A DNA stretch of 64,000 nucleotides from positions 31,868,001-31,932,000 of the forward strand of contig OZ024741.1 in NCBI GenBank assembly GCA_964016885.1. The letters run 5' to 3'. The notes under the pieces are model-generated. The model was not told the DNA's origin and searched no databases. It saw nothing but the letters and a program-made list of their open reading frames with translations. The number at the start of each line of letters is the position of its first letter. The stretch's first letter is position 1. The DNA is from Eledone cirrhosa (Eukaryota). This document shows positions 4,132-32,120 of the stretch, piece after piece. Made by a program: the position numbers and the translations under genes.

Positions 4132-4340
4132 GACGAAAGTGGATGTACGTTTTTTGAAGCTCCGTGAGTAAGCAATTTTTGAGGATTAATTGTAGAGAAT
4201 TGTTTATTTTTTGTACCGCTGAAGCATTATAAGACATTAATTTGTATCCTGTGAAGGAATAACTCATAATATTTGGGCCTTTTGGCCCAAATATTTGAAC
4301 TTTATTTTGAAAAAAATAATAATTTTTTTCTCAAAAAAAC

Positions 4341-6251: not shown

Positions 6252-6280
6252 ACCTTTCCTCTCCCATTCATCCTGCCAGC

Positions 6281-9200: not shown

Positions 9201-9700
9201 AATCCCTCGCTTGGCAGTGCTACCGGGGGGCGCTGCCGGTTCGGGATAAACTCTACAGGCACGGAAGTGCTGTCAGACGAACCTGCCCGAGATGCGCGCA
9301 GAGCGACGAAACCGTTCTGCACGCACTCGTCCAGTGTCCGTGCATTGCTGACTTGTGGGGTTATGTCGAACAGCTATTGTCGCGTGTAGAACGGATCCGG
9401 CTATCGTCCGAGTCCATAGTGAAGATTGACCCGCCGCCTTCTTTTGGTCAGGAAGGGCAGGCAATTTTCCTCTGCCTGGTGGCAGTAGCGAAAGAGGTTG
9501 CATGGTGGACCAGGTTGAAAGGACTGAAGACAGACACTTTTCTCTTCGGCCAATCCCTCATCAACTTCTTCAAGTTTCACTTGGAAAGGAAGGTGAGGGT
9601 GGAGAGAGAAGTGCTGCCCCCCAGTACATTTACTGAAAGGTGGGTGAATGTGGCGAGAATGGCCCGCGTGAGTGGGCCTACTCTGATCATGCGCCTGTAG
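6281..9700 (+). CDS. Tx1 ORF2: APE endonuclease, reverse transcriptase and C-terminal zinc motif
   Basis: 1139 aa intact. SLNVRGL, SETR, VYAP, GDWN, SYIDRIF, SDH, PSYWKLN, KSPGLDGL, NFRPITLLN, DQSKAFDRV, RQGCPLS, AYADD, CPRC..DETVLHALVQC. Confidence 0.95.
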   Translation: MAIRVGSLNVRGLGSPWKQGHLLNDLRSLGMDVIAISETRISDTRALAPIFDDYQIFASVSRPGMGGGVAVLFRKCLDLEVRSIFRDPDGKLVVLDVSNSEGGAFRLVAVYAPTGAGRPDFFRRLENFLLTSRPLLLIGDWNGILEARWDCVGVSDRSGGCKSLKYLISQFQLSDRYRLDFPNAPVWTWTNRIGSSRSYIDRIFIRKRDRNSVGCPHFKTVAYSDHKLVICMVDLDKTRRLGPSYWKLNMSFPARKAYRDRVNNLVKQKLTGGVVNNRWWGALKREIRATSIGFSKEVAIEKNRKEEGLIAKLDEAICSGIATDVLAARMALDHFFNAKHEGCIVRAKARALRNEGTKAARWARFAETQRGNKTTIRSLTDRDGHELSDSKRMCEAFRQHFARLFGRMGESETAADFSPYLDGLPRLSTADAERCEEPITSAEIQDALVGCSSRKSPGLDGLPYELYVNMPDLFSDLLEALYCNWQQNGSIPSSVSRGVVTLIRKDENKRDTLDNFRPITLLNTEFKILAKVLAKRLALVVKDLVGEAQTCAIPTRSIHDNLHLMRYIIERVGCKPGFGGALINLDQSKAFDRVDHRYLEAVLEAAGFGPVFRSWIAAMYSGIRSVVKVNGHLSEPFQISRSVRQGCPLSSLLYVLTLEPLLRKLELLQGIPLEPGRRKAASAYADDITVMVSDTSEIEVIRTHLEEYERLTGAKLNPEKSVGLQLGTWRGKSMPSNSVVGRWTDGPVKLLGVWFGPDLQVDKNWDEVTSRIANLTQKWAERKLSLKGRAEVANAYIASVIYYRLTVVPCPRPRLANLERLLFKFLWRGRVPLVRRSICCQHPLRGGLGMPWLMMRRHALRLRHLQIFCLNGEQVWSPFVRRAFPQLISLTELQSWVKKRPRLGDWHLECCQALTALCKVGNAVSGTSTQDFYRGLVEGKCDDVLGEALGVNEVELTSMFRRTFEPGTMDNFQKSLAWQCYRGALPVRDKLYRHGSAVRRTCPRCAQSDETVLHALVQCPCIADLWGYVEQLLSRVERIRLSSESIVKIDPPPSFGQEGQAIFLCLVAVAKEVAWWTRLKGLKTDTFLFGQSLINFFKFHLERKVRVEREVLPPSTFTERWVNVARMARVSGPTLIMRL

Positions 9701-9992: not shown

Positions 9993-10210
9993 TTTTTTTT
10001 TATTTTTTTTATTTATTTTTTTTTTTTATTGTGCAATGGCCATACTCGATAACGAGGGGGCAGCTATCATGTATGTATGTATACAGGGAGAGATGACCCC
10101 TTAACCTTTGTCCAGGCAGAATTCTAGGAGAAAGAAAACTCTGATATAACACCTGCAACCCTGATGGTATCCAATGATGTTGACTTGTTCTTCTTTTTGG
10201 TAAATATTAT

Positions 10211-10395
10211 GTGGATTGGCAGTATCAGTAGAGGGTCGGACGCCATGCTTTCCAGCATAGTTACGTCCCTTTACGATCTGAGTTAAAATCCCGCCGAGGT
10301 TGACTTTGCCTTTCATCCTTACGGGGTCGATAAAATAAAGTACCAGTAATGCACTGGGTAATTGCTGGCCTTGTGCCTAAAGTAGAAACAATTAT
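10211..10395 (+). mobile_element. tRNA-derived SINE, family A
   Basis: A-box-like ttggcagtatc and B-box-like gagttaaaatccc; body ctttgcctttcatccttacggggtcgataaaataaagtaccagt is shared with at least 8 other copies in the window. Confidence 0.8.
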
Positions 10396-10942
10396 CTTAG
10401 TTAAGAGAGTGGGACTGGCTTTGTGCAGTGCCTTTGCTCACTATAGAAGCTTCATGGCACAGGCGTTGCTTTATATTTGGAGATCTCTCTGCACTTGTCG
10501 TCACGTGGTACAATGGGCCCAGCACTATGTGTCAATAATTGTCACAAGTGTAGTGTTTGTACCAGAGTTTTCAAGTCGCTGGCTGGACGAAAAGTAGTGG
10601 CCGTACTCGAAAACGAGTTGGCAGCCACCATATATATATATATATATATATAAAGATAACGAAGGAAATGTGGTAAGGAACCAGGTGGACCACAACGCAC
10701 CAAAGTACTCAATACTCAGGGTAGTAGTGTGGGTAATAGGAACGAGTAGGACCTCGACGGCTGTATATATACAATAATGAGAAATACACAGATACATGCG
10801 AATACATACATATACATTCATATACACACATATATCTCTCACAAGTATGTGAAATTGTGTGGTGCCAACCTTAACCGTTGTTGCTCTATGATTAAGAAGG
10901 ACGAAATAATCCGAATGAATTAAATTGACTCTATATCAGAGC

Positions 10943-11436
10943 TACATAATACATTATAAAGAAAGAAGAAACATTAGACATAAATAAATAAATAAATACC
11001 TATTATTTCTCCACATTCTCGACTGTACAGTTTCGCGGCTACTTTGCAAAAATCCTATATCATAGAGATGTAGTATTCTTGTGAGGTTTGCCAGCTTATC
11101 AAGAGAATACCTCATTTAAAGTTTCAAAACACGTCCGCAACGCGTGAGAGAGAATCCCGTTAAGGCGGAGGGGGAATTTATCACGTGATACAGCAGTCAA
11201 GTGATAAATTCCCCTGCGCCTTCCCGGGATTCTCTCTCACGCGTTGCGGACGTGTTTTGAAACTTTAAATGAGGTATTCTCTTGATAAGCTGGCAAACCT
11301 CACAAGAATACTACATCTCTATCATACAGGATTTTTGCAAAGTAGCCGCGAACTGTACTATCGAGAATGTGGAGAAATAATAGGTATATATTTATTTATG
11401 TCTAATGTTTCTTCTTTCTTTATAATGTATTATGTA
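10943..11436. repeat. Fold-back element: about 240-bp inverted arms (10943-11184 and 11201-11436), PLE pseudo-LTR-like
   Basis: Arms are near-perfect reverse complements around a 16-nt spacer, and each arm contains a hammerhead-like motif. Confidence 0.85.
11015..11108 (-). ncRNA. Type I hammerhead ribozyme, U3-A8 core variant, long stem II
   Basis: Minus strand reads ATTCTC-TTGATAA-GC...GC-GAAA-CTGTACA-GTC-GAGAAT. Stem I ATTCTC/GAGAAT, palindromic stem III ACTGTACAGT, GUC site. Confidence 0.65.
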
Positions 11437-11442
11437 TATATA

Positions 11443-11748
11443 TGGAGGCACATGGCTTAGTGGTTAGAGCATTGGCCCTGCAATCGAAAGGTTGTGAGTT
11501 CAATTCTCAGACCGGGTGATGTGTTGTTTCCTTGAGCAAGACACTTTATTTCACATTGCACCAGTTTACTCAGCTGTAGAAATGAGATGATAGGGACTGC
11601 AAAAAAGCATCCAGCACTCACTGTAAATGAGGTTGGTGTTAGCCAGGGCATCCAGCTGTAGAAATCAAGCCAGAATCAGTTCCCGTCCCACCCTTACAAG
11701 CAGGGAAAAAGCGAACGTAAAATGATGATGATGATGATGATAATGATG
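11443..11748 (+). mobile_element. tRNA-derived SINE, family B, with CORE/V-like central segment and (GAT)n tail
   Basis: A box tggcttagtggttagagc, B box gagttcaattctc, central ccttgagcaagacactt, simple-repeat tail. Confidence 0.75.
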
Positions 11749-11863
11749 GCATATATATATATATATAAGATGTCAACATGAATGGGCCTGTTATTTTTAT
11801 CTAAATATATTTTTTCTAATTCCAACCCACCCGTCCCTTCAATCTATCTCATTTCTCATTCTT

Positions 11864-11899
11864 TCTTCTGATGAAGGACTAGCGTCCGAAACTTTAAGA
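11864..11899 (+). ncRNA. Minimal type I hammerhead motif, probably decayed
   Basis: TCTT-CTGATGA-A-GGAC(tagc)GTCC-GAAAC-TTT-AAGA. Stems I and II are intact; stem III lacks the expected G. Confidence 0.55.
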
Positions 11900-11978
11900 C
11901 CCTTTTGTTGCCATATCAAGTGTTTAACTAATATATTCCTTCCATATACTGTACCGATTGTGTTGTTACTTCTGTTTA

Positions 11979-12017
<39 letters not shown>

Positions 12018-14748
12018 GGGGGGGGGGGGGCTGTACGTGCGTGTCTGCGTGTGTCTCTGTGTGTGCGTGCGCATGCGCGTGTGTATGTTTGTGTATACGT
12101 ATCTTACATATCCAAACTGCTCCAAATAAATACATATAATTGGAACGTGGGTTTGCTAATGAATCTATATTTAGAAACACTTGTAAATTCAAATAATACA
12201 GAGTTATTTGGACACCACTTTATGATACAACGAGAAGACATGATACTGAAACTAACTTTACTCTACGAAACATTAGACTTATGATATTTTATAGGTGAAA
12301 GCAATTTCTTTTTGTTTTGAACACTTTATACCAACAAATAGCTGCTGAAGCCCTTTACTGATTGCAGAGGATCCTACTGTTTCAAAAACATGACACGTCA
12401 GGAGTGGAAGTTTCTGTCGGTGATATATATTTGACGCAATAACAGTTTATCCTCGGATCTCGAATAATCGACCCCCTCACCCGCGTATTAATTTTTCAGA
12501 TGTTTTCCACCACTCCTCTTCATAAATTTTACCAATCTATCTTCGTCGAATTGTTTTTTAAGTGGTAGCATTCCTGCGACAATTTATTTTCTTTAGACAT
12601 TAAAAAAATATTATACATGACAAAAAAGGTCATTGCTAGAAATTTCATATGTTATAAAATAAATAGGATGGGTTGGGTTGTCAATATGTAAACTAAACGA
12701 CTAATTTTGAATTTCTAAAAACATCAAGGAGACAACCTAGGAAAAATACCGATTTTCCACCGACTCCGCGCTTATTCCACCCGTGCTTATTCCAATTTAC
12801 CCGTTTATTCCAATCCCACTGATTGTACCACCCCTCTAGTTTTTTGGACCCGTGAGTACATGAAACACCGGTGCTGTTATATTCAATATTTCCACACTAG
12901 TGTCTCTTTGTGAAGGAAAAGTGACAAATATATCTAAAGTTGGTGGATAAATCAATAGCAGCAGTTAGAAATATTTTATTGTGGAACTAATCCACGGCAG
13001 CTTGTTTACTTGAGAACTTTTCCTTGAGATGTAAATATATATTAGTTATTGAATACGTGATCGAATACAGAATCATAACATATTCTCTCAATAAATCCAC
13101 CATCTGGCAGAATACTGTATATGGAGATGTTTCTACCCCATTTTTCTTAGTTTTTTTTTCATATTTTAGTGCCCTTAGCTTCTATTTTCTACTCTCTGAT
13201 ATATATTTGGTCAAATATGTTCTTCCTGTCTTTATTTCATTTTAATGTTAATCATATTATAGTAATCAATCTACCGTACTTAATAGTAATACTTTATGAT
13301 TTATTATATATCAGTCCATTCCATCACTGTTGGTGAGAGAGTAGAGAAGCTATATATATCAATGTCGACATCAGGAAGATTAGCTTCAAATTCACTTCCT
13401 AGGTAACTGGGCTCCTTCTTTATTGCCTCTATTCACTTCACTTTCATTTTTTATTAAAATTGAAGTCATAATATCTCACTAGGATGAATAATGCAATCTA
13501 CTATATACAAATATGGCTGACATTCAATTCATTATATTTTCTGTAAATATTAATGTGATCTCTATGGTATTTCTTTCTAGTTTTCGACTTTCTATCTCTA
13601 TGTCCTTTGTTAACGGTTTCACCACAACTAAAACTACTTGAAACCTGCTTCGGATATTTTTCAATTTGTTCAGGGAAGAAGGACAATCACTTAAGATTCG
13701 TTGTGGTATTACTTAATAGTAGTACCTTATTTTATATCAGGCCTTTCCATCACTGTTTGTATGAGAGTAGAGACACTATAAATTATCTGTCGACAAAGCT
13801 TCCCAGGTTGTTATGAAGACGGAAATGAGGACGTTATCCTCAAACTGGAGAATTGGCTTGAGTGTTTGCTACTGAATAAATTTAACTAACCGTACCCAAG
13901 TGATATATGGTGTTTCTAAAGCGACCAATGGATACATCTCCCACACAACGCCAAAACCGGACTATATGCCAAGTCATGTCAACTGGCGGTCTCAAATTCT
14001 TGTCAATCCCCTGCATCTAATAAAAGGACACATTCACCATTGATCACATTGGTTTAAATATAACATAGGTGGTGTAAAATGTCGGGCTTAGACGTTTAGT
14101 GTATATCTGTCTCGGTATATAGAACCATTTGTTGTGAGTATTATTCAGAAAAGGGCGTACTAATTTGGATATAATTAGCGCTCCTGTTAGTAGGTAATTA
14201 AGATATATAATAAGATATATACATACATATTTGCGTGTGTACGTGTTCTCGTGTATGTGTGCGTTCTCGTGAATGTTTGTGTCTTATTTGTGTGTTTATG
14301 TCTCTGTGTGTATCTGAATGTGTGTTTGTATGTGGGTGAGAGAGAGAAAAAGAGAGAATGTGTGTGTGTGTGAGTGTGTATAATATGGGAAGTTTGCGGC
14401 TGGAATACTTCGAACCCTAATTCTCATTGATCAGGGTTGACCTGCAGCTAAACAGCAACAACAGCAACAGCATCAACCGAGCTAGAACGGTCCATATTAT
14501 CTGAGTTATTGTCTAAAACTTACGTAGTATTTTGATTTGAATTTCACTTATATCTTCTGTGTTTAGAATTCCCATATTTAGCTTCTTCATTAGTCTTGTT
14601 TACAACATTGTTGAAGTCATACATGGTTTTAGGGAGTACTCTAAGTAGCGGATGTACTTGCTTGCAGATAATTTTACATTTTTCATATAAAATAATGTAT
14701 ATTTTTTCGACACTATGTGTAAAAATAGTTTGAAAATGCCTTGAAGTA

Positions 14749-14966
14749 TACAAAGGTCGGGTGAAAAGATCATAGACTAAAATGTTCATTGAATGATTAA
14801 GATACTCTCAAGGAATGATCAAATGGGGTTTATTTTTCTACATAGCACCTGGAAAGCTACAATGCAGCGATTGGTAAGAAGAGTTGAAATTAATGCCAGC
14901 AAGATTTAAGAAATTTAGTATCAAACCTTCATTGTCAACCTATGAACGTTTGAACCGATCCTCGTA
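14749..14966. mobile_element. Old Tc1/mariner-type MITE
   Basis: TA-bounded imperfect terminal inverted repeats: TACAAAGGTCGGGTGAAAAGATCATAG versus the reverse complement of the right end, TACGAGGATCGGTTCAAACGTTCATAG. Confidence 0.55.
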
Positions 14967-14989
14967 TATTCTGAAAGTTTACATTGTGC

Positions 14990-15950
14990 GTTCAATCCCC
15001 GCCTGAATAACATGTCCCCCTTCCCCTTCCATGGTCAACAACATAATCTCCTAGTAATGTTTCCTCTCCCTCAAAATTAATGGCAATGTGCGTAAAGTAG
15101 AAATCATTATTATTACGATGATGATGATAAAGATGTACAGAGCCGACATAAGCATATATGGAGGTCGCCACCGTGGCGGTATCGGACACAACAGAAATCG
15201 AGATGTTTGGCACATTCTTGAAGTAGTAAGAAATGTCGCAATGATTGACACATATAAATCGGTGGAGAGGCGAGTCTATGTCGTTGAACAGCGTCACTGG
15301 ACAGAAATACTGGTTAAGTTGCATGGTGTTTGGTTTGGTCCGGACATCAAGGTAGATGGGGAGGTAGATAGGCAGTAGAGAGAGGTAATATACACGGAGG
15401 ACCTTTGGCCCGAGATGTATGGATAATTTCCAGAGATACCTGACCTAGCAGTATTATGGAGGCGGGGGAGGGGGCTCTGCTGAATTAAGAAAACATTGTA
15501 CAGGCGTGAAAATGCTGACAGGTGTGTCAGATATGCGAGTAGATGAAACCATTAGGTTTTCACTCATCCAATGACTGTGCCTCGTGGAAGTTGTTATGTT
15601 ACCTTATATTGGCCAGAAAAGGCAGGTACCTCTCCTGTTTGGTAGCTATGACTAAACGAGCTGTGTGGGGGACAAGACTGAAAGTACTGAAGACAAATAT
15701 ATTCATCTTTGGCTAAGCCGACATCGGTTCTTTTAATTTCTACTTGGAAAAGAAAGTGATGGTGGAGAGGGTCTCACAGTAACTTTGTAAAAATGTGCCT
15801 GAATGGAGAAGGAATGCTGCACGTGAATGGGTCCACTCTAAGCAAGCATACACCTGTATACTGGAGAGAAGAGAGAGGAGACAGGGACTTGCCTCTGGTG
15901 CTTTTCGTGATCTGGGTGATCGTAGAACTCTTAGGATCCTAAATTACTCT
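14990..15950 (-). pseudogene. Heavily decayed LINE endonuclease fragment, possibly Tx1-related
   Basis: Minus-strand peptides TRISDT and LLGDY resemble ETRISDT and LIGDW of the Tx1 ORF2; many stops. Confidence 0.35.
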
Positions 15951-16125
15951 TGGTTCGTGCTCGACTCTGTTTGAGAACTCTGTTGTTACATACATTTGTT
16001 ATTTTCTACTTGTCTTTTGTTCTTCTTTGATAAAACGTCCTTAAATAAATCCCAACTTCTCCAGTTTATTGTATTTCCTAAAGGTGTTCAACAAAGAAAT
16101 TATTTTTATTATTTTGCATATCATT

Positions 16126-16555
16126 AGGGCAGCGGATTGGCAGTATCGATAGGGCGACGGACAACATACTTTACAGCAGAGAGTTACGGCCCTTTATGAT
16201 CTGAGTTCAAATCTCATCTAGGTTAACTTTGCCTTTCATCCTTAAGGGGTCGATACAATAAAGTACCAGTAACGTACTGGGGTCCATTTAATCGACTTTC
16301 GCCTTCTCGAAAATTGTTGGCATTGTGCCTATATAAGAAACCATTAATTTACATATCATAGGGTTGTGGATATCATACGACGGAGGTATAGAGTTACGGC
16401 CATATATGTTCTGAGTTTAAATCCCGCTGAGGCTTGCTTTCCCTTTAATCGTTACAGGGTCGATAAAATAAAGTACCAGTAACGTACTGCGGTCGATTTA
16501 ATCGACTCTTCCCTCCCTCCAAATCGTTGGCCTTGTGCTTAAATCAGACACAATT
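16126..16555 (+). mobile_element. Two tandem SINE family A copies (about 16126-16346 and 16360-16555)
   Basis: Both carry ctgagtt(c/t)aaatc...gggtcgata(a/c)aataaagtaccagtaacgtactg. Confidence 0.8.
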
Positions 16556-17123
16556 ACCCTCAGCTCATCAACAACACAAACAACATCGCTGTCTTCATCA
16601 TCGACACTAGCACCACCATGATGATCATCATCATTATATTCATCCTTTTTAAACACGTGTATCATAAATATGTTTCAGGTTGTTTGTTTTATAAACAAAA
16701 CAAACATAACGCATGCGGGACAATTTATACTAGAGCATTATAAATGTGTGTTGTCAGTTAACAATATTTAACCGGCGCCATAATAGAACTAACATCGTTC
16801 TTCTTCCAATAATTGTTCGTCTCCAGAGCTGTTATTTTTTAAGGGAGTTTCTTTCTATAGCAAAATATTTTTGTCTGTATATATCCGGCAATTGTTGGAC
16901 TTTCCTCATTCATAAATATTAAACTGTGCAGAAAAATAAGCAAACAAAGGCAAATCAAACAGATATACAAGTCAATAACTGCAATTAGGACATATTACAA
17001 TACACAACAATACACAATGTTGCATTCTTATAATTTATAAAATAATGTTTTGAAATTGTAAGCCTTGTCAATGCTGTTGCGTTATTTTTGTTGTTGTTGC
17101 TGTTGCATTATTTTTGTTGTTGC

Positions 17124-17159
<36 letters not shown>

Positions 17160-17350
17160 TGTTACTAGGGTTACTATGTTTTTTTTTTTCACAATTTACT
17201 TTCGTATGTTGCCTGTCGATTATTATAATTTAGTTGCTATTGTTTAGAGTCAATAAAAATATCCATTAAAAGAGTAGTAGACTAGAAGTAGTATTTGTAA
17301 CAAATACGATATTATGAATTATTATCCTCCTCCTCCTCCTCCTCCTACCC

Positions 17351-17500
17351 CTCTGAGTTCAAATCCCACCGAGATTAGATTTGCCTTTCATCCATACGGG
17401 GTCGATAAAATCAAGTACCAGTTACGTACTGGAGTTGATTTAATCGATTTTTCCATTTGCTTCAAATTACTGGCCTTGTGCCAAATGTGGAAACAATTAT
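17351..17500 (+). mobile_element. 5'-truncated SINE family A
   Basis: ctgagttcaaatcccaccgag...gggtcgataaaatcaagtaccag. Confidence 0.75.
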
Positions 17501-17716
17501 TTCACATCGTCACATTATATATATATATAATGTATATTTCTATACACACCCACAAACATGTATATATATATATATTGTATATATATATATTAAATAATAT
17601 GATTCCAGTTCCTCGGAGGACTAGCAACACACCAATGAGCTGGACATATCGATGAATTGACAGAGTGGAACACATTTCAACAACATGTTTACCTGTTTTT
17701 TCTACGTTAATTCGTA

Positions 17717-17769
17717 CTGCCTGATGAGGTCACAGCCAATAATAGCTGTCACTGAAATATATATAGCAG
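17717..17769 (+). ncRNA. Type I hammerhead ribozyme
   Basis: CTGC-CTGATGA-GGTcACAGC(caataata)GCTGTcACT-GAAA-TATATATA-GCAG. Canonical core, stems I and II, AUA cleavage triplet. Confidence 0.8.
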
Positions 17770-17916
17770 AGAATTTATAATAAACGAAGCCAAATTTCAC
17801 ATGTTTGGACTTACCCATGTTACATTACTCCGGTGTAAACCAACCAATCTGCGTACTTCGTGGAGTGCTCCAACCTGCATACTGACTGAGGTGTCGGTAA
17901 ACAATCAACACATACT

Positions 17917-17920
<4 letters not shown>

Positions 17921-18003
<83 letters not shown>
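17921..18003. repeat. (AT)n microsatellite
   Basis: About 40 perfect AT units. Confidence 0.97.
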
Positions 18004-18007
<4 letters not shown>

Positions 18008-18048
18008 CGAAACATAAGTCAATTGCATGAACTCATAATCCTTTATTT

Positions 18049-18104
18049 ACTGCCATATATATTTCGATGATAGCCTTTGAATGGCTATGACCTCATCAGG
18101 CAGT
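18049..18104 (-). ncRNA. Type I hammerhead motif related to the 17717 copy; cleavage triplet AUG, so likely inactive
   Basis: Minus strand reads ACTGC-CTGATGA-GGTcATAGCC(attcaaa)GGCTATcATC-GAAA-TATATATG-GCAGT. Confidence 0.7.
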
Positions 18105-18190
18105 TAGTCAGTTCTTAGATATGCCAGCTCTATGTTTATAGTGTTGATGGTATCAGAGCCTTCGGACATATGAGGTTGTTAGGAATAATT

Positions 18191-18249
<59 letters not shown>

Positions 18250-18252
<3 letters not shown>

Positions 18253-21200
18253 AAAATAACAGATTAAAGTTTAAGCAAAGAATCGCTGCTTTCACCCTTA
18301 ACGGGATCTTCTGAAACTAACAAAGTCAATCTGTAAACGCAGAAGTGGATATTTCAAAAAACGTTGCAACCGGAGGAGTGGAAACGTTCGCTGGCAAAGA
18401 ACGGGAAAAAACGAATAAGATACGTCATAAATAGGAGCGGTGAAAAACAATTACGCGCAAAGACAGAACCACGATTATGGTATAAAAGAAGTCGTAGACT
18501 AATGTTCCCTTAGGTGGTTCATAGAGACGTTCTCTGGCAATGAACGAAATAAACGAAGATAATGCGTCATATGTGGAGCGTGGAGAACAATAGCACGCAA
18601 AGAGAAAACCACGTAAATGGTATAGCTGAAGTCGTAGACTAAAATTCTAACTAGGAGACCGAATGAATCGCCGCTTCAGAGTTAAGAACAAAGTAAATAA
18701 ATACAGAAGTAATAGAAATAAATAAATACATACACGCAAACAAATACGTACATAGACAAGCATACGCAAAACACTTACCATAGGTATACAAAACCACGCA
18801 CATAAAAATATGTGTGTGTATGCGTGTATACAAATAAATAAATAATTAAATAAACGTATATAAATAAATAAATACGTATATAACAAGCACACACACATAC
18901 CTACATGTAAATACACGAATGTTCGGAGACGTATGTCAACCAAAACATGAAGTACACATATACACACACCCTACATACGTACGAACCTGCATACTCACAC
19001 AGACGCAAAACTCCCGTATACACATAGCCAAACCATATGTACCAGAATAAAAAAAATTATACGCCATAACATAAACAATCAAATATACGTACGAGAAGGT
19101 ATACGTACCTTCACGAATCATACGGGTATTATATACTTACCTATGCAAATAAGTAATGGTATAAACAAAACATATACTTAGCTCCCACATCAAGACGTAA
19201 ATATCCACGTATAGATCGTACTATCCGTTAGGCTATAACGTGGGGCTGTAATACAGGAAAGTTTTGTGCAAAATATGTTTACAAGCCAAAATTGCCTCAG
19301 ATTTTTGTTTAAGATGTGGTCTGTAGAGTATTTACAGGGCTTCAGCGGCGCAGAGGTCACATGGTCTTTTATTTCCGTTATACGATCTAGCCGTAGCTAG
19401 GATCTCCCAGTGTAACTTATATTGGGTGTGGTTGTCTTTTAGACTCCAAATATAAGCTGAAAGTGACGTCATATTCCTTCTTAGAGGGTAACGAAAAGAA
19501 TGAGTATGCGTGTAAAGACGATGCTTGAATCTATTGGCGGTTAACCCTATGTAGGCCCTACGGGACGTAGGTGTTACAACCTTACATTTGTAGACAATGT
19601 TACTAGAGAGGCATTTCCCGGATAGGGGGCAATCAACCCGATTCCTACAATTACAGTTAGTACTAACTACAGGGTTGCACGTGTTCCTACGGCTAGGTAG
19701 TTTAGCTAAATTTGAAGCTGTGATGTTATGTGGAAGGTTAGGAGTCGTAGAGTATGAAATTTTAATAGTATTTCTATTAAAAATGTTACTATATTTATGT
19801 GTAGGGGGAAAATGCCTTGTAATAAGGGAAAGAAAGATCTTAGCTAATGGTGTGGCTACCTCCATATTATATGGTGGGTTATACCAACAAATGCGAAGGG
19901 ATCTATTTCTTCTAGGTCTATGTTCGTACTCTGTATATGCTACCTTATCGACAAATCCACTTCGAGCAAGAGCTTCATTGTAATAAGTGGAATGGTCGTT
20001 GAAAATAGGCTCGTTGGTGGAAAGACGGGAAAGCCTCAACGAAACGTTTCTTACCAGGTTCTTGGTTATGCTGGCAGGATGGTTGGAATGCTTACTTATG
20101 TAATTAAGGGTATCATTCGGCTTTCTATACGGGTAATACAACCCATTCAGTAAATTGAGGGTAACGTCAAGGTAATTAACGACCGAGAGATTGGCCTCAA
20201 CCTGTATAGAGAGATTGAAGCCTTTAAAGAAGGCTGTGAGTTCTTTTCTGAACCTGTCGCAAGCACGAGGTCCGCACTTAGTCATGGTCAAAAGACCATC
20301 GTCACCGTACAAACCACCGCCCGCGTTGGGGAATTCGTCCTTGATAGAGAAAAGAAGGAAAAGGTCGATGAGATCAGTAACCTCCGCAGAATGACTGGCG
20401 CCCATACTCACGTCGAATGGGGTAATATTAGATTTTGTTATCCAAATAGAGTCGTCGAAATTAATCACCGACTTTCGGGCATTGAGGATGACATCAACTT
20501 CGAAATCCTTAACCACTGTGAGTGTTTTAGCGAAATTAATAGCTCTAAGGAAAAGTGGTAAAGTGATGGAGGAGTAGTAATTGTTGATGTCGAATTGGAT
20601 AAAACGGCAATGTTCCTTGTTACATATGCCGTTGAACCAATCAATCACCGCGAAAGAATTGTTCCACAGTGCAAGAGGGGCCAAACTTCTAATTTCAGGT
20701 ATAATTCTATCAAGAATCGTTTTACTAAGTCTACCTAAATCGGACTTCGTAGGGCTAATAAGCCGAATAGAGGGGTTGTTCGAAAAATTGGATTTGTGAT
20801 CCTTCAGGGTAAAGTGGGGAGAAATAGGATCCAGAGGTTCGGTCCGGTCCAGGATGTTGAGATCAGATGTGATTTTAAACCCAGCATCGTTGATTTCATT
20901 GATGACGCACCGATTAGTTTTACGGTAATCCATAGTTACAGCATTATGTAGTAGTTGATGGTAAGTACTGCGCTTTACTTGATATAGGTTGACAGTTTTG
21001 TCGGAATGGACGTGCACGGCATTAGAATCCTTCATAAAATGAATTCTATTCTTCAGGTCTTGCTGGAAGGAATTGCTTCTATTCCAAAACTTGATACTCC
21101 GAATGAGTTCCAAGACATCATTTTCGAAGGGTAGCACTGCTGGGTTACACGGGGGGTTATTATAGGTTTTAAATCCAAATTTATCCTGTTTGTTGTCTGC

Positions 21201-21411
21201 TTTTCGCGGGTTATCGAAATAAAAGGCACGCCAACGTAACCTTTTAATAAACGCGTCTGTTTTCTGTATCAGGAGTTTTAGGTATGTTTTCCTGCTTGGT
21301 ACGGGTATGTTCTTTGTAGAAATATTCAGATGTTGTTTCTGCATGATGAATATAAGTCAGTAGAGTGCTCAATCTTTGGATTTTAGTCTTGAAATTTATT
21401 ATTATTACTAT
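18250..21411 (-). mobile_element. Penelope-like element 1 (Naiad-type), near full-length, bounded by (AT)n tracts
   Basis: RT plus GIY-YIG ORF and about 1 kb of 3' non-coding region containing a duplication of about 145 bp (18380-18640). Boundaries are inferred from the (AT)n tracts. Confidence 0.75.
19233..21344 (-). pseudogene. PLE reverse transcriptase and GIY-YIG endonuclease; one in-frame TAA at 19332-19334
   Basis: NIPVPS..KRLRWRA, FIQFDINNYY, MGASHSAE, LYGDDGL, YLDVTLNL, CNCR....CPLSGKCL, NIVY..AYIG, RPCDLC. The frame continues past the TAA as ILYRPHLKQKSEAILACKH to a TAG ending at 19233. Confidence 0.88.
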
Positions 21412-21430
21412 AAATATATATATATATATA

Positions 21431-23690
21431 TTGAAAGGATAACAAGGACGATTGATTACTCCTTCATTGAATTTATTGTTAGGTGACGCGCGTTTCGCCA
21501 CTGATCAGCTCAAGGTTCGATCTGTATCGATCCTGCCCGACTCAATAAACGGCGGCTCGACGGACCCTTTAAAATGCTATAAGAAAATGAAATACATGCT
21601 ATGTGGTAAACCCAGAATTTCAAGAGTTTGACAATATGAGTTGTTTTGATTGGTGGGAAGGATCAAAGGGGTGTACTGGCCTGTAGTGTATGTGGGGGTG
21701 GATGTGATGATAAGATGTTGGTGACGGTCGCTGGCTGCGATGGGCTGTGGTGTGGTGGTGCCGGGATGGATTTGGCCTGTAGTGTATGTGGGGGGAGGAT
21801 GTGATGATGAGCTTTTGGTGACGGTCACTGGGTGTTATGGGCTGTAGTGTGGTGGTGGCGGGTTGGCCTTGGCCTGTAATGTATGTGGAGGTGGATGTGA
21901 TGATAAGATGGTGGTTATGGTCGCTTACTGGAATGGACTGTGGTGTGAGGTTAGAGGGTTGTCGGTAGATCGGCTGTCGCGTGTGGGGAGTGGTTGTGGT
22001 GTTGTTATTTATGGTAGTGGCGTTTGTGGTGGTGTGGTGGATGGGTTGGTGGTATCGAGTCCTTGGGGAGATACATACCTAAACACTCTTAGTCTGACAA
22101 AAACGTTGTATATATATATACATATATGTATACATGCGCATATATACTGATTATATATACACACGAATACACCTACATACACACACACATACCCAAGTCC
22201 ACACATATCCACACGCACATATATATCCATATGCGTATATAAACACATGTATGTGCATGCGCGCGTGTGGATATATATATAGGGAGAGTGGGGGAGTATC
22301 TCTGGGGGTGGCGTAGGACAAAGATGAGGGAAGGTGAGAGCCAATGGAGATGGTGTTATACATATAGACATACACATACCTACACACATACACACATACG
22401 GATATGCGCACATACACGTACATACACGTATACATAAACATACACACACACACGTATACACACACATACACACACACACACACGTATACCCACACATACA
22501 CATACACATACACACACACATACATGTATATATACACATACATATATATATATACATATATATATGCATACACGCCCGCATATGTATACGCACGTATATG
22601 TAAAAAATACTTACATACAGACACACACACTTGCGTTGGTTCGACTTGTGTCTGGTGGTGGAGTTGTGAGCGACAAAAATATACAGGATCGAATAGTACG
22701 GTGGGTTACAGGTTAAAAGGGGACACAGGGAACGCGGGGGAAAAGAGTTTATGGACGTATAGCGATGTGTGTTGTGGTCATGGTGGTGGTGGTGGTGCTG
22801 GGGTGATATGTTCGACAAAATGATTACATGATCAGAAGTTACGGTGGGTTACAGGGTAAGGCAGACGGGGGGCGGCTATAACACAGTCGATCTGGGAGTG
22901 AGGGATGATATGTGTTGATGATGTTAATGATGTTAATGATTGTTGAAGTATGTGGATGTATTTAGTGGTGGCGGTGGTTGTGTGTGCGACAGTACATTTA
23001 CAGGGTCGAATTTAGCGTCGGGTTGTAGGTTAGGGTTGACAGAGGGAACATGGGAGGATAAGGTTGCGGGTGTGGATGGTAGACATATGACGATGTGTGG
23101 TGGTGGTGGCGATGTTGTGATATGATCGACATTGCATTTACAGGATCAGATGTTACTATGGTTTGCAAGGTAAAACCTGTCAGAGAGGACAGATAGAACA
23201 CAATGTTGCAAGGATGAGGGGTGTATAACGATGTGATTTTTGGTGGGGGTGATGTATGCGGCATGATATACGAAATACGGGCTTACAAATGGTTAGATGC
23301 AATACAATAAAATAAATTCAATAAATAAATTCGCTGAGATGGGCGATGGTGAGACGGGGCAGAGCTGGTTATTATTATGCTGGGTCATGTTTAGTGCGCG
23401 GTCCTCCCCCGAATGTTTCTGCGGAAAATGTGTTCAGCCTGGTGTGTTTGCAATTGACAATTATGACCGACCTATAGTTTATGGCAGATTTTAATTTAAT
23501 TATTTCTGCCGCCTCAGCCAGGCATAATCTGCAGTGGATTCTGTCACTTGGGACTTGTACCACGCGTCTTTTCACTGACCACGAGATCTGGGGTTCGATA
23601 TTCCTGTCCTTGAGGTCCCATATCAAATCGGCCAGTCTGGTTTGGGATCATTTCAGCCTATGTTTAAAGGAGCTTCTGTGGTTATACATA
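21431..23690 (-). mobile_element. 5'-truncated Penelope-like element: GIY-YIG C-terminus plus long 3' region
   Basis: ORF 23375..23626 (IWDLKD..ISWSV..CRLCLAE..CKH) matches the C-termini of the other two PLEs. (AT)n at both ends; decayed hammerhead half-motif GGC-GAAACGCGCGTC near 21484-21500 on the minus strand. Confidence 0.7.
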
Positions 23691-23694
23691 TGGT

Positions 23695-23727
<33 letters not shown>

Positions 23728-23925
23728 TAGGTATAGGATTATCCTAGATGCAGTAATGGTTAATTACTACACTGGATAGAGTTGACGTACGGTGAGAGGT
23801 TACTCAACGAGTTATGGAAGAATTGTTGAAGAAACTTAGTCCCTGATCCTTCTGTATTCCGGAGTGTAGATAAAGAATGAATAATAATAACAGGTAGACA
23901 TAATAAAAAGGTAATTTATTCTGTG

Positions 23926-24037
23926 TGCTTACAAATGTTTCCACTGTGGTTATACAGCCTAGTTATGCTATGTGCAAAGTTATAACTATTTGCAAAACTC
24001 AATTATCAAATGCTTCGACCACTGTATCATCAGAGCA
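23926..24037 (-). ncRNA. Type I hammerhead ribozyme in PLE pseudo-LTR, long stem II
   Basis: TGCT-CTGATGA-TACaGTGGT...ACCACaGTG-GAAAC-ATTT-GTA-AGCA; GUA site. Confidence 0.75.
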
Positions 24038-24554
24038 GAATGGTTAAAATGTACAATGTAAATACCCTTAAGTCCCCTAAGTGAGGTTATTGGGGAATAT
24101 AGAGTAGAAAAGGAAGAGAGAAAAGAAGGGGAGAGGAAGAGAGAGAGAAAGATATGCAGTGGTTGGAAAAATGTGAGAGAGTGGTTTGTAGATATCTTAA
24201 TCAAAATGTTGTAGTAGGGGTTTTATTATACTGGTTACTCTTAAAGCGACCACCTTAAGCGGTACGTTGATAGTCAAGGTTGGAATTATTTATTGCCCCA
24301 GAGGGCAGGTTCATAGATGTAAAGAGGGAGGGAGGTAGGCCTAGGGCGAGAGATAGAGAGTGGAATGGATAGAGAGGGAGAGATAGAGAGGGGACAGACG
24401 AAAGCTATGGGGTGGGTGAAAATTGGGTTCATAGTAGTAATCTACGAATTGCACTAAGTTCCCATTTATAGTGATAAGCAGGGTATTGTCTTGTAGTGTG
24501 GGGGGAGAGAAAGTGGTTAGCTAGAAAGCAATGTTATAGTTACGGGTTCGAATG

Positions 24555-26480
24555 TTAAGTTATTTTATAGTGAGAGAATTTAGCTTTCAGTTTGTGGTTG
24601 CAGTATAATGATCGTTCGATTCTATCATTTAGTAATTTATTTTTGGATTTTAAGATGTAAAAGAGTTCAAGGTTACATAACCTACAGTACTTCAATCCAT
24701 TCCGATATGCACTTGCGCTGGAAAATATATCCCATTTCAAGGTGAACTGTTGGTTGCGTTCACGGAGTTGTCAGGTCTTTTTGGCGAGCATGGTCACAAA
24801 ACGGTGATCAGGATGTTTAATTGAGAATCGATGACGGTACCAGCGAGATTTAAACGAGGTAGTGGTAGATCCGATGTAATACCATTTCTGGTCGTTCGAT
24901 TCAACCGTGCATTGGGAAACAATGTTGGACTTTAGGCATTTATCCCTTAATGGACATCTTTCAGGTAGGTGGCAGTTGCAGTTTTTGTTGTGGGTAGCGG
25001 TCTACCATGGATAGGTTGTGATAGCAGTACAGGTGGGTTGTGTAATACCCGTCTCCCATTTAGTGGTTGGGAGGCCGATATTACGTTATACTCATCTGTT
25101 ATTAAAATATTTTGTTTTGTAGTGTTGTTTAATTGCTTTAAGTTAAGTTTTTTTTATGTATGCTTCAAGGTTTGGTGCCGTGGAGTATGATAGTCTAATA
25201 GTTTTAGAGTTCAGAATTTTACTGTATTTATGGGAACTAGGGAAATGCTTGTTGATTAACTTAAAGAATGAAAGAGATAGTTTTGTACTAATCGAAGCAT
25301 TAAAAATAGGATTATACCAGATATGCTTTCAACAACGTGATTTATTTGGTGATGATTTTCTATTATCAGAATGTCTGGTGGTACTACGTGTGTGCGCTTG
25401 TATTTCAGTACCCCGGTTACGCATTCCTTGATTTCGTGTAGAGCTATGTGTGTTATGGAGATTCTTATCAATGTATTCTATTGTATCCCGGTGGTCGGCA
25501 TTCCTTAATGCATTATTATAGTATTCAGCGTGTTCACTAAAAATCTCAGAGTCAGAAGATAGGCGAGAGATTCTAAGAGAAATACTACGGGGAACCGATT
25601 TGATCATGGAAAGTGGGTGGTTTGAGTTAAAATTGATATAAGTAAGGTTCTCATTTATCTTGTGGAAGGGTCGTATCAGTCCGGTATTTAAATTAAGAGT
25701 TACGTCTAGAAAATTTACTACTTTAAGATTGTATTCGTACGTTATTTTTAGACCCAGTTCACTAAAAGATTTTCTAATATTTTTCCGTAGCCTTTTAAGA
25801 TTTTGGTTATTTAAGTTATTAACTAATAAGAGCCCGTCATTTCTGTATATTCCCCCCTGTAGATTACTAAATTTACTATGTAGTATGTAGGCTATGTAAA
25901 TTCCCGCAAGATCCGTGACCTCCGCTGAGTCGTTGGAACCCATGGTAATGTCGAAGTTTGTGGGTCTGTCCTTACGTTCCCAGTAGCAGTTATCAAACTT
26001 GATAATAGTTTTTCTAGCCTCGAGAATAATATTAATCTCGTCCTCCGTTAGGTCGCAATTGACTTTAGCAAATGATAGGGCCTTACGTAAAGTGCCGGGT
26101 GAGATTGAAGAGTAGTATTCGTCTATGTCAAATTGTATAAACTTAGATTTATTCTTGTTCTTAACGTTATTAAACCAGCGAATTGCTTCGCTAGTGTTGC
26201 TCCATAGTTTAATTTGAATTATCTTTTTCACTTGAGTTATTACTCTGTCAAGTATATGTTTGCTAATTTTTCCTATGTCTGATTTAGAAGGGCATATAAG
26301 TCTAATCTTAGGGTTAGAGTCAACATTTACCTTATGGTCCTTCAGGTTAAAGGTGGGGGTTGCGGGTATAATCGGCTCGGTTCTATCGTTTATCTTGAGA
26401 TTCTTCACCACTTTGTATGCCTCCTTGTTAATATTTGCTAGCGTAGTTTCACTTGTTTTCCTATATTTTTTGTGTAGTTC
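24555..26480 (-). pseudogene. Disrupted PLE RT and GIY-YIG coding region
   Basis: FIQFDIDEYY, MGSNDSAE, IYRNDGL (catalytic D mutated), FLDVTLNL; downstream CNCHLPERCPLRDKCL, WYYIGST, CRLCNLE; frameshifts present. Confidence 0.85.
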
Positions 26481-27114
26481 ATTGAACTCTTTTACATCTT
26501 AAAATCCAAAAATAAATTATTTAATGATAGAATCGAACGATCATTATACTGCAACCACAAACTGAAAGCTAAATTCTCTCACTATAAAATAACTTAACAT
26601 TCGAACCCGTAACTATAACATTGCTTTCTAGCTAACCACTTTCTCTCCCCCCACACTACAAGACAATACCCTGCTTATCACTATAAATGGGAACTTAGTG
26701 CAATTCGTAGATTACTACTATGAATCCAATGTTCACCCACCCCATAGCTTTCGTCTGTCCCCTCTCTATCTCTCCCTCTCTATCCATTCCACTCTCTATC
26801 TCTCGCCCTAGGCCTACCTTCCTCCCTCTCCACATCTATGAACCTGCTCTCTGGGGCAATAAATAATTCCAACCTTGACTATCAACGTACCGCTTAAGGT
26901 GGTCGCTTTGAGAGCAACCAGTAAAATAAAACCCCTACTACAACATTTTGATTAAGATATCTACAAACCACTCTCTCACATTTCTCCATCCCCTGCATAT
27001 CTTTCTCTCTCTCTTCCTCTCCCCTTCTTTTCTCTCTTCCTTTTCTAATCTATCTTCCCCAATAACCTCACTTAAGGGACTTAAGGGTATTTACATTGTA
27101 CATTTTAACCATTC

Positions 27115-27226
27115 TGCTCTGATGATACAGTGGTCGAAGCATTTGATAATTGAGTTTTGCAAATAGTTATAACTTTGCACATATCATAACTAGGCTGTAT
27201 AACCACCGTGGAAACATTTGTAAGCA
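27115..27226 (+). ncRNA. Type I hammerhead ribozyme, inverted pseudo-LTR copy
   Basis: TGCT-CTGATGA-TACaGTGGT...ACCACcGTG-GAAAC-ATTT-GTA-AGCA. Confidence 0.75.
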
Positions 27227-27319
27227 CACAGAATAAATTACCTTTTTATGATGTCTATCTGTTATTATTATTCATTCTTTATATATTATATATATATGTC
27301 AAAGTCCTTTATTGATCAT

Positions 27320-27385
27320 GCTGTGATACATATTTCAATGATGACAGTGGCCACACGATTCTGTGCCATGACATCATCAGACAGC
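27320..27385 (-). ncRNA. Type I hammerhead motif in a small non-coding module
   Basis: Minus strand reads GCTGT-CTGATGA-tgtca..TGGC..GCCA..tcatt-GAAA-TATGT-ATC-ACAGC. Its 3' half recurs inverted at about 27422-27461. Confidence 0.6.
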
Positions 27386-27585
27386 TTCTTATATAATAAG
27401 GTTACGTTCCCAATTAGGATACATTGAAATATGTATCACAGCATTATCAATAAAGGACTTTAACATCTGAAACTACTTCGTATTTTTTCATTCTAAATAT
27501 ACTCCGTTTTCCTATGTGGAAAAAATACGCCTAGTGCTTGAATTGAATTGCATCAATGTTTACCGTTAGTATATATATATATAAT

Positions 27586-27743
27586 AAATTATTTAACCTG
27601 ATAGTGGGGTTAAGAACCCTCGGAGAAATGGTAAAAGATGAGTATTGACGTACAAAGATGAATATTGACGTACATGTATGTCAATACTCATCTTTTTCCA
27701 TTTCTCCGAGGGTTCTTAACCCCACTATCAGGCTAAATAATTT
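27586..27743. repeat. Short fold-back inverted repeat with arms of about 68 bp
   Basis: cctgatagtggggttaagaaccctcggagaaatgg / ccatttctccgagggttcttaaccccactatcagg. Confidence 0.8.
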
Positions 27744-28124
27744 CTTTAATTTCTTTAGTCAAAATACGGCGATAGCTTACAATTATAATAATTTAAAACC
27801 CGCTCGCTGTTTCGAAAAATATTCTTACATATATATTTAAGTTTCTACGTAGGTTTTTATTTATAAATAATATACCCGTGGGTGCTCCAGAAATTCTGCT
27901 CTGCAGGAAGAGTTACAGCTACGTCTGCAAATTGAGGATACGATTCTTCTTTTTACAAACAGTTTCATCGGCTTTAAAAAGGGTCTGGGCCGCAACTATT
28001 CAAACATTGACTAAGAAAAATAAGATGTAGAACAATGAGATAAAGTTGATATTAAATTAATGCGAATAACAGTCTTGCTGTTTTTAAGCATTTTATTGGC
28101 ATCATCAGAAATAAAAAAAATCTA

Positions 28125-28164
28125 GTGATGATGATAATGATGATGATGATGATGATGATGGTGG

Positions 28165-28232
<68 letters not shown>

Positions 28233-28239
28233 GTGATGG

Positions 28240-28271
<32 letters not shown>

Positions 28272-28790
28272 ATGATGATGATTATGGTGGTGGTGGTGGT
28301 GATGATGATGGTGGTGGTGATAACAACAGTAGCAACAACTATGACAAGGACGATGAAAATATTGATGCACATGATGATGACGATGTTGATGATGATGATG
28401 ATGATGTTGATGATGAAGATGAAGATGATGATGATGAAGATGATGATGATGTGATAATGATGACGATGACGATGATGATGATGATGTTGATGATGAAGAT
28501 GAAGATGATGATGATGAAGATGATGATGATGTGATAATGATGACGATGACGATGATGATGATGATGATGATGATGAAAATGATGATGATGATGATGTGAT
28601 AATGATGATGATGATGATGATGATGTGATGATGATGGTGATGATGATGATGATGTGATAATGATGATGATGATGATGATGATGTGATGATGGTGATGATG
28701 ATGATGATGTGATGATGATGGTGATGATGATGATGATGTGATAATGATGATGATGATGATGATGATGTGATGATGGTGATGATGATGATC
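28125..28790. repeat. (GAT)n-based compound microsatellite
   Basis: Directly visible. Confidence 0.95.
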
Positions 28791-28879
28791 CTTTTGATAA
28801 TTGTCAATAACAATTCCTATTATTATAGCCCGCGCTTTAAATTCATACATGTACAGACAAAAATATATCAGTGTTTTCT

Positions 28880-29370
28880 ATAGGGGGAGGAGGGGGAGGA
28901 GCAGAAGGAGGGAAAGGGGTGGAGAATGACGGGGAGGGAGAGAAGGGGGCGGAGGAGGAGAAGGAATTGGAGAGCTGTGAAGAGAAGATGGAGAAGGAGA
29001 AAGAGTAGGATGAAGAGGAGGGGGGGGGATGAAAAGAGGAGGGAAATAGAAGAAAGAGAAGAAGGAGATGGATGAGGAGGGAGAGAAGCAGGCGGAGGAG
29101 GAGAAGGAATTGGAGAGCTGTGAAGAGAAGAAGGTGGAGAAGAAGAAAGAGTAGGCTGAAGAGGAGCGGTGGGGGGGGGTGAGGAGAGTAGGGAAATAGA
29201 AGTAAGAGAAGAAGGAGAAGGATGAGGAGGGAGAGAAGGAGGCGGAGGAGGAGAGGGAATTGGAGAGCTGTGAAGAGAAGAAGGTGGAGAAGGAGTAAGA
29301 GTAGGCTAAAAAGGAGGTGGGAGAGGATGAAGATGAGGAGAGTAGGGAAATAGAAGAAAGAGAAGAAGAA
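28880..29370. repeat. Polypurine tandem repeat, about 145-150-bp unit, three copies
   Basis: ggcggaggaggagaaggaattggagagctgtgaagagaag recurs at about 28948, 29091 and 29241. Confidence 0.8.
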
Positions 29371-30689: not shown

Positions 30690-32120
30690 AATAACAACAA
30701 TAACAATAGTAACAGCAACAACAACAACGGCCAGTTTAGCAGAGGACTACAACAGCAACAACAACAATAGTAACAACAGCAACAGTAACAACAACAATAA
30801 TAGTAACAATAGCAACAGTAAAACCAACAATAGTAACACTAGCAACAGTAACAACAACAATAGTAACAACAGCAACAACAACAATAGTAACAATAGCAAC
30901 AGTAACAACAACAATAGTAACAATAGCAACAGTAACAATAACAATAGTAACAATAGCAACAGTAACAACAACAACAGTAACAACAACAATAATAGTAACA
31001 ATATCAACAGTAACAACAACAACAACAGTAACAACAACAATGATAGTAACACTAGCAACAGTAACAACAACAATAGTAACAATAAAAACAGTAACAATAA
31101 CAATAGTAACAATAGCAACAGTAACAACAACAATAGTAACAATAGCAACAGTAACAATAACAACAATAATAGTAACAATAGCAACAGTAACAATAACAAC
31201 AATAATAGTAACAATAGCAACATTAACAACAATAATAGCAACAATAGCAACAGTAACAACAACAATAGTAACATTAGCAACAGTAGCAACAATAACTATA
31301 GTAACAATTGCAACAGTAACAACAACAATAACTATAGTAACAATAGCAACAGTAACAACAACAACAACAACAACAACAACAATAGTAACAATAGCAACAG
31401 TAACAACAACAACAATAGTAACAATAGCAACAGTAACACCAACAATAGTAACAATAGCAACAGTATGAACAACAACAATAGTAATAATAGCAACAGTAAC
31501 AACAACAATAGTAACAATAGCAACAGTAACACCAACAATAGCAACAATAGCAACAGTAACACCAACAATAGTAACAATAGCAACAGTAACACCAACAATA
31601 GTAACAATAGCAACAGTAACACCAACAATAGTAACACTAACAACAGTAACACCAACAATAGTAACAATAGCAACAGTAACACCAATAATAGTAACACTAG
31701 CAACAGTAACACCAACAATAGTAACAATAGCAACAGTAACACCAACAATAGTAACAATAGCAACAGTAACACCAACAATAGTAACACTAGCAACAGTAAC
31801 ACCAACAATAGTAACAATAGCAACAGTAACACCAACAATAGTAACAATAGCAACATTATGAACAACAACAATAGTAATAATAGCAACAGTAACAACAATA
31901 ATAGTAACAATAGCAACAGTAACAACAACAACAACAACAACAACAATAGTAACAATAGCAACAGTAACAATAACAACAATAGTAACAATAGCAACATTAA
32001 CAACAATAACTATAGTAACAATAACAAGAACAACAGCAATAGTAAAAAGACCGATAGATGCAACAGTGACAACAGCAACAATAACAACATCATAAGAATA
32101 ATGACAACAATAACAACTAC
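30690..32120. repeat. (AAC)-derived minisatellite with a 30-bp unit accaacaatagtaacaatagcaacagtaac in its core
   Basis: 30-nt periodicity is clear at 31530-31860. The poly-N and poly-L ORFs are artefacts. Confidence 0.9.

Follow-up and report, generated by a model that had tools for sequence, protein, structure and literature searches.

A 64,000-nucleotide stretch of Eledone cirrhosa DNA (contig OZ024741.1, positions 31,868,001 to 31,932,000; hereafter the window, with positions counted from its first letter) holds a crowded series of Penelope-like elements (PLEs) and small hammerhead-bearing modules at (AT)n tracts, which raises the question of what placed them there and whether the modules without genes are dependents or ends of coding elements. 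The answer that we consider probable is a series of independent insertions into (AT)n by Hydra-clade PLEs, one Neptune-like end and three gene-less repeats, likely made by target-primed reverse transcription starting from inside the RNA. The pile-up is real, yet it is largely explicable as known Hydra-type PLE ends; what is new here is the hairpin that the ends share, together with the gene-less passengers, above all family J. Nine families (A, B and D to J) were defined from window positions 10000-29000 and each was traced in the 3.0-Gb genome, where loci carry L numbers. An earlier note on this DNA had placed the system at 10900..27850, and the (AT)n tracts that it described beside small modules were located at every position it named; module A begins at 10772, left of that range. 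The insertions and the spacers of the chain are as follows.

10772..11436, minus strand: fold-back insertion of family A, whose 612-nt unit has no gene (long arm and tail minus, short inverted arm plus)
11768..11981, plus strand: module B, from the pseudo-long terminal repeat (pLTR) of a Neptune-like PLE, flanked by (AT)n at 11751 and at 11982
17597..17920, plus strand: module D, probable 3' end and long tail of a Hydra family (linked open reading frame (ORF) pieces)
17921-18003: (AT)n spacer, longest of the chain, observed
18004..18190, minus strand: module E, the 3' end (short end) of a Hydra family, truncated 5' (linked ORF copies)
18250..21413, minus strand: element F, near-full Hydra PLE; coding piece 19332-21356, ATG at 21344, 670 codons
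21432..23694, minus strand: element G, Hydra copy truncated 5', with an endonuclease piece at 23510-23689 and a 3' untranslated region (UTR) of 2 kb
23728..27286, minus strand: element H, 5'-truncated broken Hydra PLE; coding piece 24666-26483
27298..27569, plus strand: family I fold-back insertion, gene-less (1229-nt unit in L253)
27584..27828, plus strand: fold-back insertion of family J; the copy lacks the head and covers positions 66-221 of the 272-nt unit, which is tRNA-headed
18191-18247, 21414-21431, 23695-23727, 27287-27297, 27570-27583: other (AT)n spacers of the chain, observed

The stretch 17597-27828 is a run of seven insertions, one from each of the families D, E, F, G, H, I and J, separated by (AT)n alone. 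The direct arms face both strands (plus in B, D, I and J, minus in A, E, F, G and H). Every family has its 3' end fixed at (AT)n, a variable 5' truncation and frequent inverted arms. The (AT)n targeting proposed in the earlier note is borne out elsewhere in the genome, where a tract lies within 25 nt of 147 of the 161 family ends as against 3211 of 21712 flank positions (14.8%); this enrichment test covered eight families (I left out), with six duplicate loci removed and either end counted for A, F and G. The nine families are not denser near one another (50 hits in 651 kb, compared with 28 in 400 kb of evenly spaced stretches, a comparison in which the counting differs), and the seven-insertion chain is an upper-tail case that was chosen after the fact.

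The ends of these insertions share a structure. Ten ends, belonging to the seven families A, D, E, F, G, H and I, are followed at about +1 to +10 by a bulged hairpin, RCTC-NN..NN-TN-GAGY, whose pairs are swapped between families, A-T for G-C and others, in the manner of covariation. By chance the motif occurs at 23 of 20000 positions. In A, F and I both ends are followed by it at comparable distances, the loops being 6-54 nt long. A published Hydra sequence from a coral shows a similar motif at its end. After the ends of B it was seen in none of 13 cases. In the window, hairpins were found by this motif in A, D, H and I, and the 5' end of F preserves half of one.

10883..10942, minus strand: A tail hairpin 1 (GCTC..GAGC)
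17827-17866, plus strand: D tail hairpin
21365-21372, minus strand: F 5' end, half of hairpin 2, with a 39-nt inverted tail piece
23802-23865, minus strand: H tail hairpin
27501-27535, plus strand: I tail hairpin

A short and a long end, usually one per side, occur in the seven hairpin families and in J, with only the short end seen in E, and the tails measure about 80-165 nt. The order in F is hammerhead, short end, hairpin 1, long end, hairpin 2, 5' UTR and ORF, and 12 of the 19 copies found with a 5' UTR query contain the full run from hammerhead to ATG. In E the tail passes straight into the ORF.

The hairpin likely marks the start of reverse transcription. In the process that we envisage, the endonuclease would nick the (AT)n target, the reverse transcriptase (RT) would bind the bulged RCTC..GAGY hairpin and begin 1-10 nt upstream of it, two such starts would yield the short and the long end, and each insertion would keep (AT)n on both sides and so offer fresh targets. 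Two internal RT starts bounding a tail have been described in vitro for the PLE Poseidon (Frangieh et al. 2024, PMC11167929), and we infer that Hydra-clade ends may be set in the same way, with the hairpin as the signal. Alternatively, the hairpin could be a by-product of promoter function, processing or endonuclease docking, the ends being set nearby by, for example, AT-rich microhomology with the target. Most ends do lie in AT-rich sequence, the 5' hot spot of D starts with ATAT, and the tail of Drosophila Penelope is reported to be necessary for endonuclease recognition (PMC11167929), but the return of the motif at a similar offset after both ends in three families, across loops of such different length and with paired covariation, makes this explanation unlikely.

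Whether such starts also serve elements without genes is most acutely asked of family J, whose unit was recognised from longer copies as 272 nt with a tRNA-like head (Rfam tRNA, 37.6 bits at a gathering score of 29). The family is abundant, with at least 1145 exact matches to a 30-mer, and no hammerhead was found in its unit. Taking the first 30 on contig 1 and setting aside 6 second arms left 24 independent loci, which showed an inverted arm in 19, a tandem or read-through in 11, and (AT)n on the right in 18 and on the left in 19. One end was long and the other shorter in 16 of the 19 two-armed copies, the ends lying about 40-60 nt apart. It could be held that J is an ordinary tRNA-derived short interspersed nuclear element (SINE) mobilised by a long interspersed nuclear element (LINE), its tandems and inversions having arisen via twin priming or later DNA rearrangement in (AT)n. 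The head does carry A- and B-box-like motifs, the 5' end lies within 12 nt of the head start in about 8 of the 24 loci, and J has neither the Hydra hairpin nor a hammerhead. Against this stand the tail-to-head read-through and the paired ends, which are signatures of PLEs and which, with the inverted arms, depart from the layout of a tRNA SINE, in which single copies run head, body and tail, end 3' in LINE-related sequence and are flanked by target duplications (a LINE 3' match was not searched genome-wide). Furthermore, a run of at least five T follows the head in 19 of the 24 copies, and a T run of five or more is expected to stop RNA polymerase III (Pol III) before the J body. A SINE origin is thus rather improbable in our judgement.

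Two subfamilies of J are 92% identical in the head (30 of the 76 positions by selection), 96% in the stalk strand that follows and 69% in the body, and in both predicted folds a stalk bears the head. The PLE ORFs lying close to J loci were considered as parents and proved to be neighbours instead. A PLE of another clade, with a C-terminal endonuclease, a minimal hammerhead, a tail and (AT)n ends, was observed at L178:5770-8000 (minus strand) and L401:2-1400, and lies near 4 of the 24 J loci. Copies of abundant SINE-like repeats lie in the window at 10212-10397, 16123-16556, 17352-17507 and 11440-11720, and one has a 14-nt word of the J head.

The insertions of A, I and J bear the hallmarks of Penelope, namely partial tandems, inverted arms and one short and one long end, and in all three the tail runs back to the unit's own start with no ORF. 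The tail-to-start junction of the 612-nt tandem of A has 55 exact matches in the genome, and none of the 20 junction loci fetched leads into a Hydra ORF; Hydra matches occur at another place in three of these, 1.1 kb upstream or on the opposite strand. A Hydra ORF adjoining A in L247 was examined as A's own and is a separate element. The unit of I measures 1229 nt from hammerhead to hammerhead in L253 and gave no match to a Hydra or Neptune-like protein. A is firmly a gene-less hammerhead passenger, and I is the same on one full copy. Since A and I carry the hairpin, they likely rely on Hydra enzymes, and all three families likely borrow the enzymes of Penelope elements.

The remaining modules are linked to coding elements. 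All 19 other copies of E extend upstream, one of them (L180) spanning ORF residues 13-674, and the four long copies of G that were fetched all run into the endonuclease, so that E and G are, on their linked copies, truncated 3' ends of coding Hydra families. The same probably holds for D, where 5 of the 29 copies found by a 3'-only query extend upstream, one reaching a Hydra endonuclease (linking copies L019/L181); a short dependent form of D is possible, and a circular junction (320-nt unit) was met in one instance only. Three copies of B continue through the internal AT run, and L077 reaches an RT, L075 and L079 having the same read-through start. In this RT the blocks GVAMGT..YANLFVG, KPTD and SIPYSQF match the Neptune block of a published alignment by eye, and B looks Neptune-like; an endonuclease was not seen. 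The hammerhead-bearing parasites of the earlier note are in this way reduced to A, firmly, and I, on one full copy, and its proviso that all modules might be simple truncated ends is true of B, E, G and probably D, but probably not of the gene-less A, I and J. The broader claim that these three, too, are truncated ends of an autonomous PLE with an unseen coding parent draws on the example of those four modules, and on coverage: of the 55 junction loci of A, 20 were read, of the 1145 matches of J, 30, and I is represented by one copy. We give it little credence, because A and J close on themselves in tandem without an ORF and a sister of A forms a 592-nt trimer in the evenly spaced stretch L341.

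The three PLE coding remnants that the earlier note had seen on the minus strand were recovered at 19332-21356, 24666-26483 and 23510-23689. F has a single ORF in which the GIY-YIG endonuclease is C-terminal, with RWR at 37 and DKT at 115 (corresponding to RWK/DKT); its frame ends early at a stop that precedes the family's C-terminus, and the unit is about 3.25 kb. The coding piece of H is 37.6% identical to that of F, its 5' part is missing, and an 804-nt pLTR is present as an inverted copy (97%). A CxCX5C linker reads CNCRNRVDC in F, CNCHLPERC in H and CNCRDPSLC in E; F has no CCHH, and its sole CxxC is the C-terminal CDLC. A hammerhead in the pLTR and insertion at (TA)n are found throughout the set (F and H, and G, E and D by linked pieces), the motif of G being non-canonical. 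Because a C-terminal GIY-YIG with RWR, DKT and CxCX5C is the Hydra signature, F and H, with G, E and D through linked pieces, are by their motifs Hydra-clade PLEs; a Pfam search gave no match for the two PLE ORFs. That the autonomous partners are instead Naiads, as the earlier note had it, retains almost no probability, since a preference for (TA)n is all that would fit, whereas in Naiads the endonuclease is N-terminal and canonical hammerheads are missing (PMC8557442), and neither an N-terminal endonuclease nor the CxC motif or DKA of Naiads was found here, canonical hammerhead cores occur in H, D and the E family, and the domain order rules Naiads out for F, G and H, though not for J. Family F looks young, with 1448 candidates of which the top 39 are at 99% across the 5' end. 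The region 12030-14200 was tried as a third PLE remnant and rejected; only 12450-12780 within it is a high-copy repeat (2372 candidates at about 80% identity), with no RT match.

Hammerhead-like motifs, putative self-cleaving ribozymes, accompany all families except J. The earlier note counted about nine of at least four architectures; ten were found here (two each in A and H, and one each in B, D, E, F, G and I), of at least six architectures.

11015..11108, minus strand: A hammerhead, U3-A8 core, 61-nt stem II (strict scan)
11276..11368, plus strand: A second-arm hammerhead, damaged in GAAA
11864-11899, plus strand: B minimal hammerhead, stem III palindrome broken in the window copy
17717-17769, plus strand: D hammerhead (strict scan)
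18099, minus strand: E hammerhead core, G at the cleavage site in the window copy
18268-18318, minus strand: F hammerhead, family-wide U4A (strict scan)
21481-21567, minus strand: G hammerhead-like motif, non-canonical (family alignment)
23926-24037, minus strand: H hammerhead (strict scan)
27115-27226, plus strand: H second hammerhead (strict scan)
27320-27385, minus strand: I hammerhead (strict scan)

These motifs come from custom scans, as an Rfam search of the window gave no hammerhead. A first strict scan found four, as against a mean of 0.03-0.1 in 60 shuffles, and a scan that also admitted a palindromic stem III, U4A and U3-A8 found six, as against none in each of 30 shuffles of the region; on shuffled 400 kb the wider scan gave 1-3 motifs. 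Four motifs fail: B, whose stem III palindrome is broken; E, which has G where cleavage would occur; the second A arm, which carries a deletion within GAAA; and G. The damage is copy-specific in the first three, and G is non-canonical in 20 of 20 aligned copies. It allows two readings, G8C, in which stem I is absent, and U4C/A6U, in which stem I has 4 bp and stem II 60 nt. A change at A6 leaves low activity, and G8C abolishes cleavage in the Poseidon ribozyme (PMC11167929). The CAGAAGA core of F (U4A) was likewise constant in 20 of 20 aligned copies, and the hammerheads of H have an 85-nt stem II. Long stems II fold no better than shuffles, save in D (z -2.8) and weakly in A (z -1.9). The region may be called ribozyme-rich, as the earlier note did, in that the six strict motifs have no counterpart in its shuffles, but with 6 motifs in 17 kb its density exceeds that of a genome sample only mildly, by a factor of about 2.4. 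That sample of 40 evenly spaced 10-kb stretches held 58 motifs in 400 kb, with at least five in 3 of the 40, which puts the genome total roughly at 3-6 x 10^5 motifs (a rate of 1.45 in 10 kb, with a bootstrap range of 0.95-2.0). Two of the evenly spaced stretches contain tandem hammerhead arrays, at L337:8630-9700 with a 311-nt period repeated four times and at L341:636-2300 with a 592-nt period repeated three times and a U3-A8 core like that of family A.

Several observations weigh against the account of independent insertions by internally started TPRT. The genome copies, being top matches to the window copy, are not a random sample, and the clade calls rest on motifs and on comparison by eye with a published alignment. 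In 8 of 135 cases (14 hits minus 6 of the same family) the far side of the (AT)n was taken directly by another of the families, so target regeneration alone is a poor account of the chain of seven and a local hot spot is also needed. The 5' ends of D lie within 4 nt of one site in 14 of 29 copies, L253 is the sole read-through copy of I, whose loci reach just 1.5 kb upstream, and the end of J gave no match to the Hydra hairpin and shares no sequence with the ends of the other families. Lastly, Poseidon in vitro does not need its hammerhead for insertion and starts in an AC-rich stem loop of other sequence (PMC11167929).

A wider proposal is offered as a tentative one. PLE RTs may pick their starts by a bulged hairpin common to the clade and thereby sustain a guild of gene-less passengers, among which J might have swapped its hammerhead for a stalked tRNA-shaped fold cut by host tRNA-processing enzymes, giving unit-length, possibly circular templates and a SINE-like class for Penelope. 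The choice of internal start sites by PLEs and the purpose of the hammerhead are open questions (PMC8557442, PMC11167929), and the hairpin, with its covariation in seven families and its place after both ends, can be tested directly by mutation. A hammerhead-less, tRNA-headed passenger, if true, would mean that the ribozyme is dispensable or replaceable and that parasitism of the SINE type reaches beyond LINEs.

Other features of the window were recorded. An apparently intact two-ORF non-LTR element lies at 4323-9700 on the plus strand (642 aa, and 1150 aa with endonuclease, RT and zf-RVT), with decayed relatives at 15263-15357 and 15602-15769, and an RT ORF with C-terminal C2H2 zinc fingers at 1864-3717, also on the plus strand. 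A 95-nt stretch is present in two 78%-identical copies (13277-13370 and 13710-13795), and long (TGA)n and 15-nt AAC-rich arrays occupy 28126-28789 and 30749-32045. From 39067 to 64000 runs a 36-nt tandem array of about 693 copies with 94% matches and frames open for thousands of codons, which also fills most of the next stretches, where no hammerhead was found.

Truncated PLE ends, inverted copies, tails, (TA)n targeting and PLE-derived retrozymes have all been published. A literature search, a weak negative with most subscription papers and Repbase outside its scope, found no Hydra tail hairpin and no tRNA-headed, hammerhead-less PLE passenger. The closest system is the Hydra clade, including Hydra-1_Obim (Craig et al. 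2021, PMC8557442), which shares the RWK-like and DKT motifs, the CxCX5C linker, a C-terminal GIY-YIG, CxxC and CxH near the end, hammerheads, (TA)n targets, inverted 5' copies and a one-sided tail. It differs in its published tails of 30-40 nt, several hammerheads here have a long stem II or variant cores, and neither the tail hairpin nor gene-less Hydra dependents were found in the available text. Minimal PLE hammerheads (Cervera and de la Pena 2014, PMC4209133; Perreault et al. 2011, PMC3088659) offer parallels in a palindromic stem III predicted to be active as dimers, U3-A8 covariation and opposite-strand pairs 100-700 bp apart; neither the U4A that family F has throughout beside a full stem III nor G's reading as A6U or G8C was found in the parts available. 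Poseidon PAc of Anolis (PMC11167929) likewise has two ends bounding a tail, an AT-rich target and a structured RNA at the start, but belongs to another clade and starts in an AC-rich stem loop inside the ORF, whereas the bulged hairpin lies just 3' of each end here.

For the gene-less families the comparison is with metazoan non-LTR retrozymes (PMC7229834; bioRxiv 10.64898/2026.07.22.740005), for which a PLE origin has been proposed and which, like A (612 nt) and I (1229 nt, one copy), are gene-less tandem units with one type I hammerhead each. A and I are unlike them in being mostly partial tandems and fold-backs at (AT)n, and A in its U3-A8 core. The SINE-like Sm-alpha repeats of schistosomes (PMC6765202) form tandem units whose promoter is of Pol III type, and J may have such a promoter too; they carry a hammerhead, whereas J has none and shows paired ends of PLE type. 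The terminal-repeat retrotransposons in miniature Helenus, Ajax and Cassandra (PMC10886601) resemble J in being non-autonomous with a tRNA- or 5S-like sequence in the terminal repeat; they are long terminal repeat elements with a primer-binding site, a polypurine tract and 4-5 bp target duplications, whereas J has the layout of a PLE.

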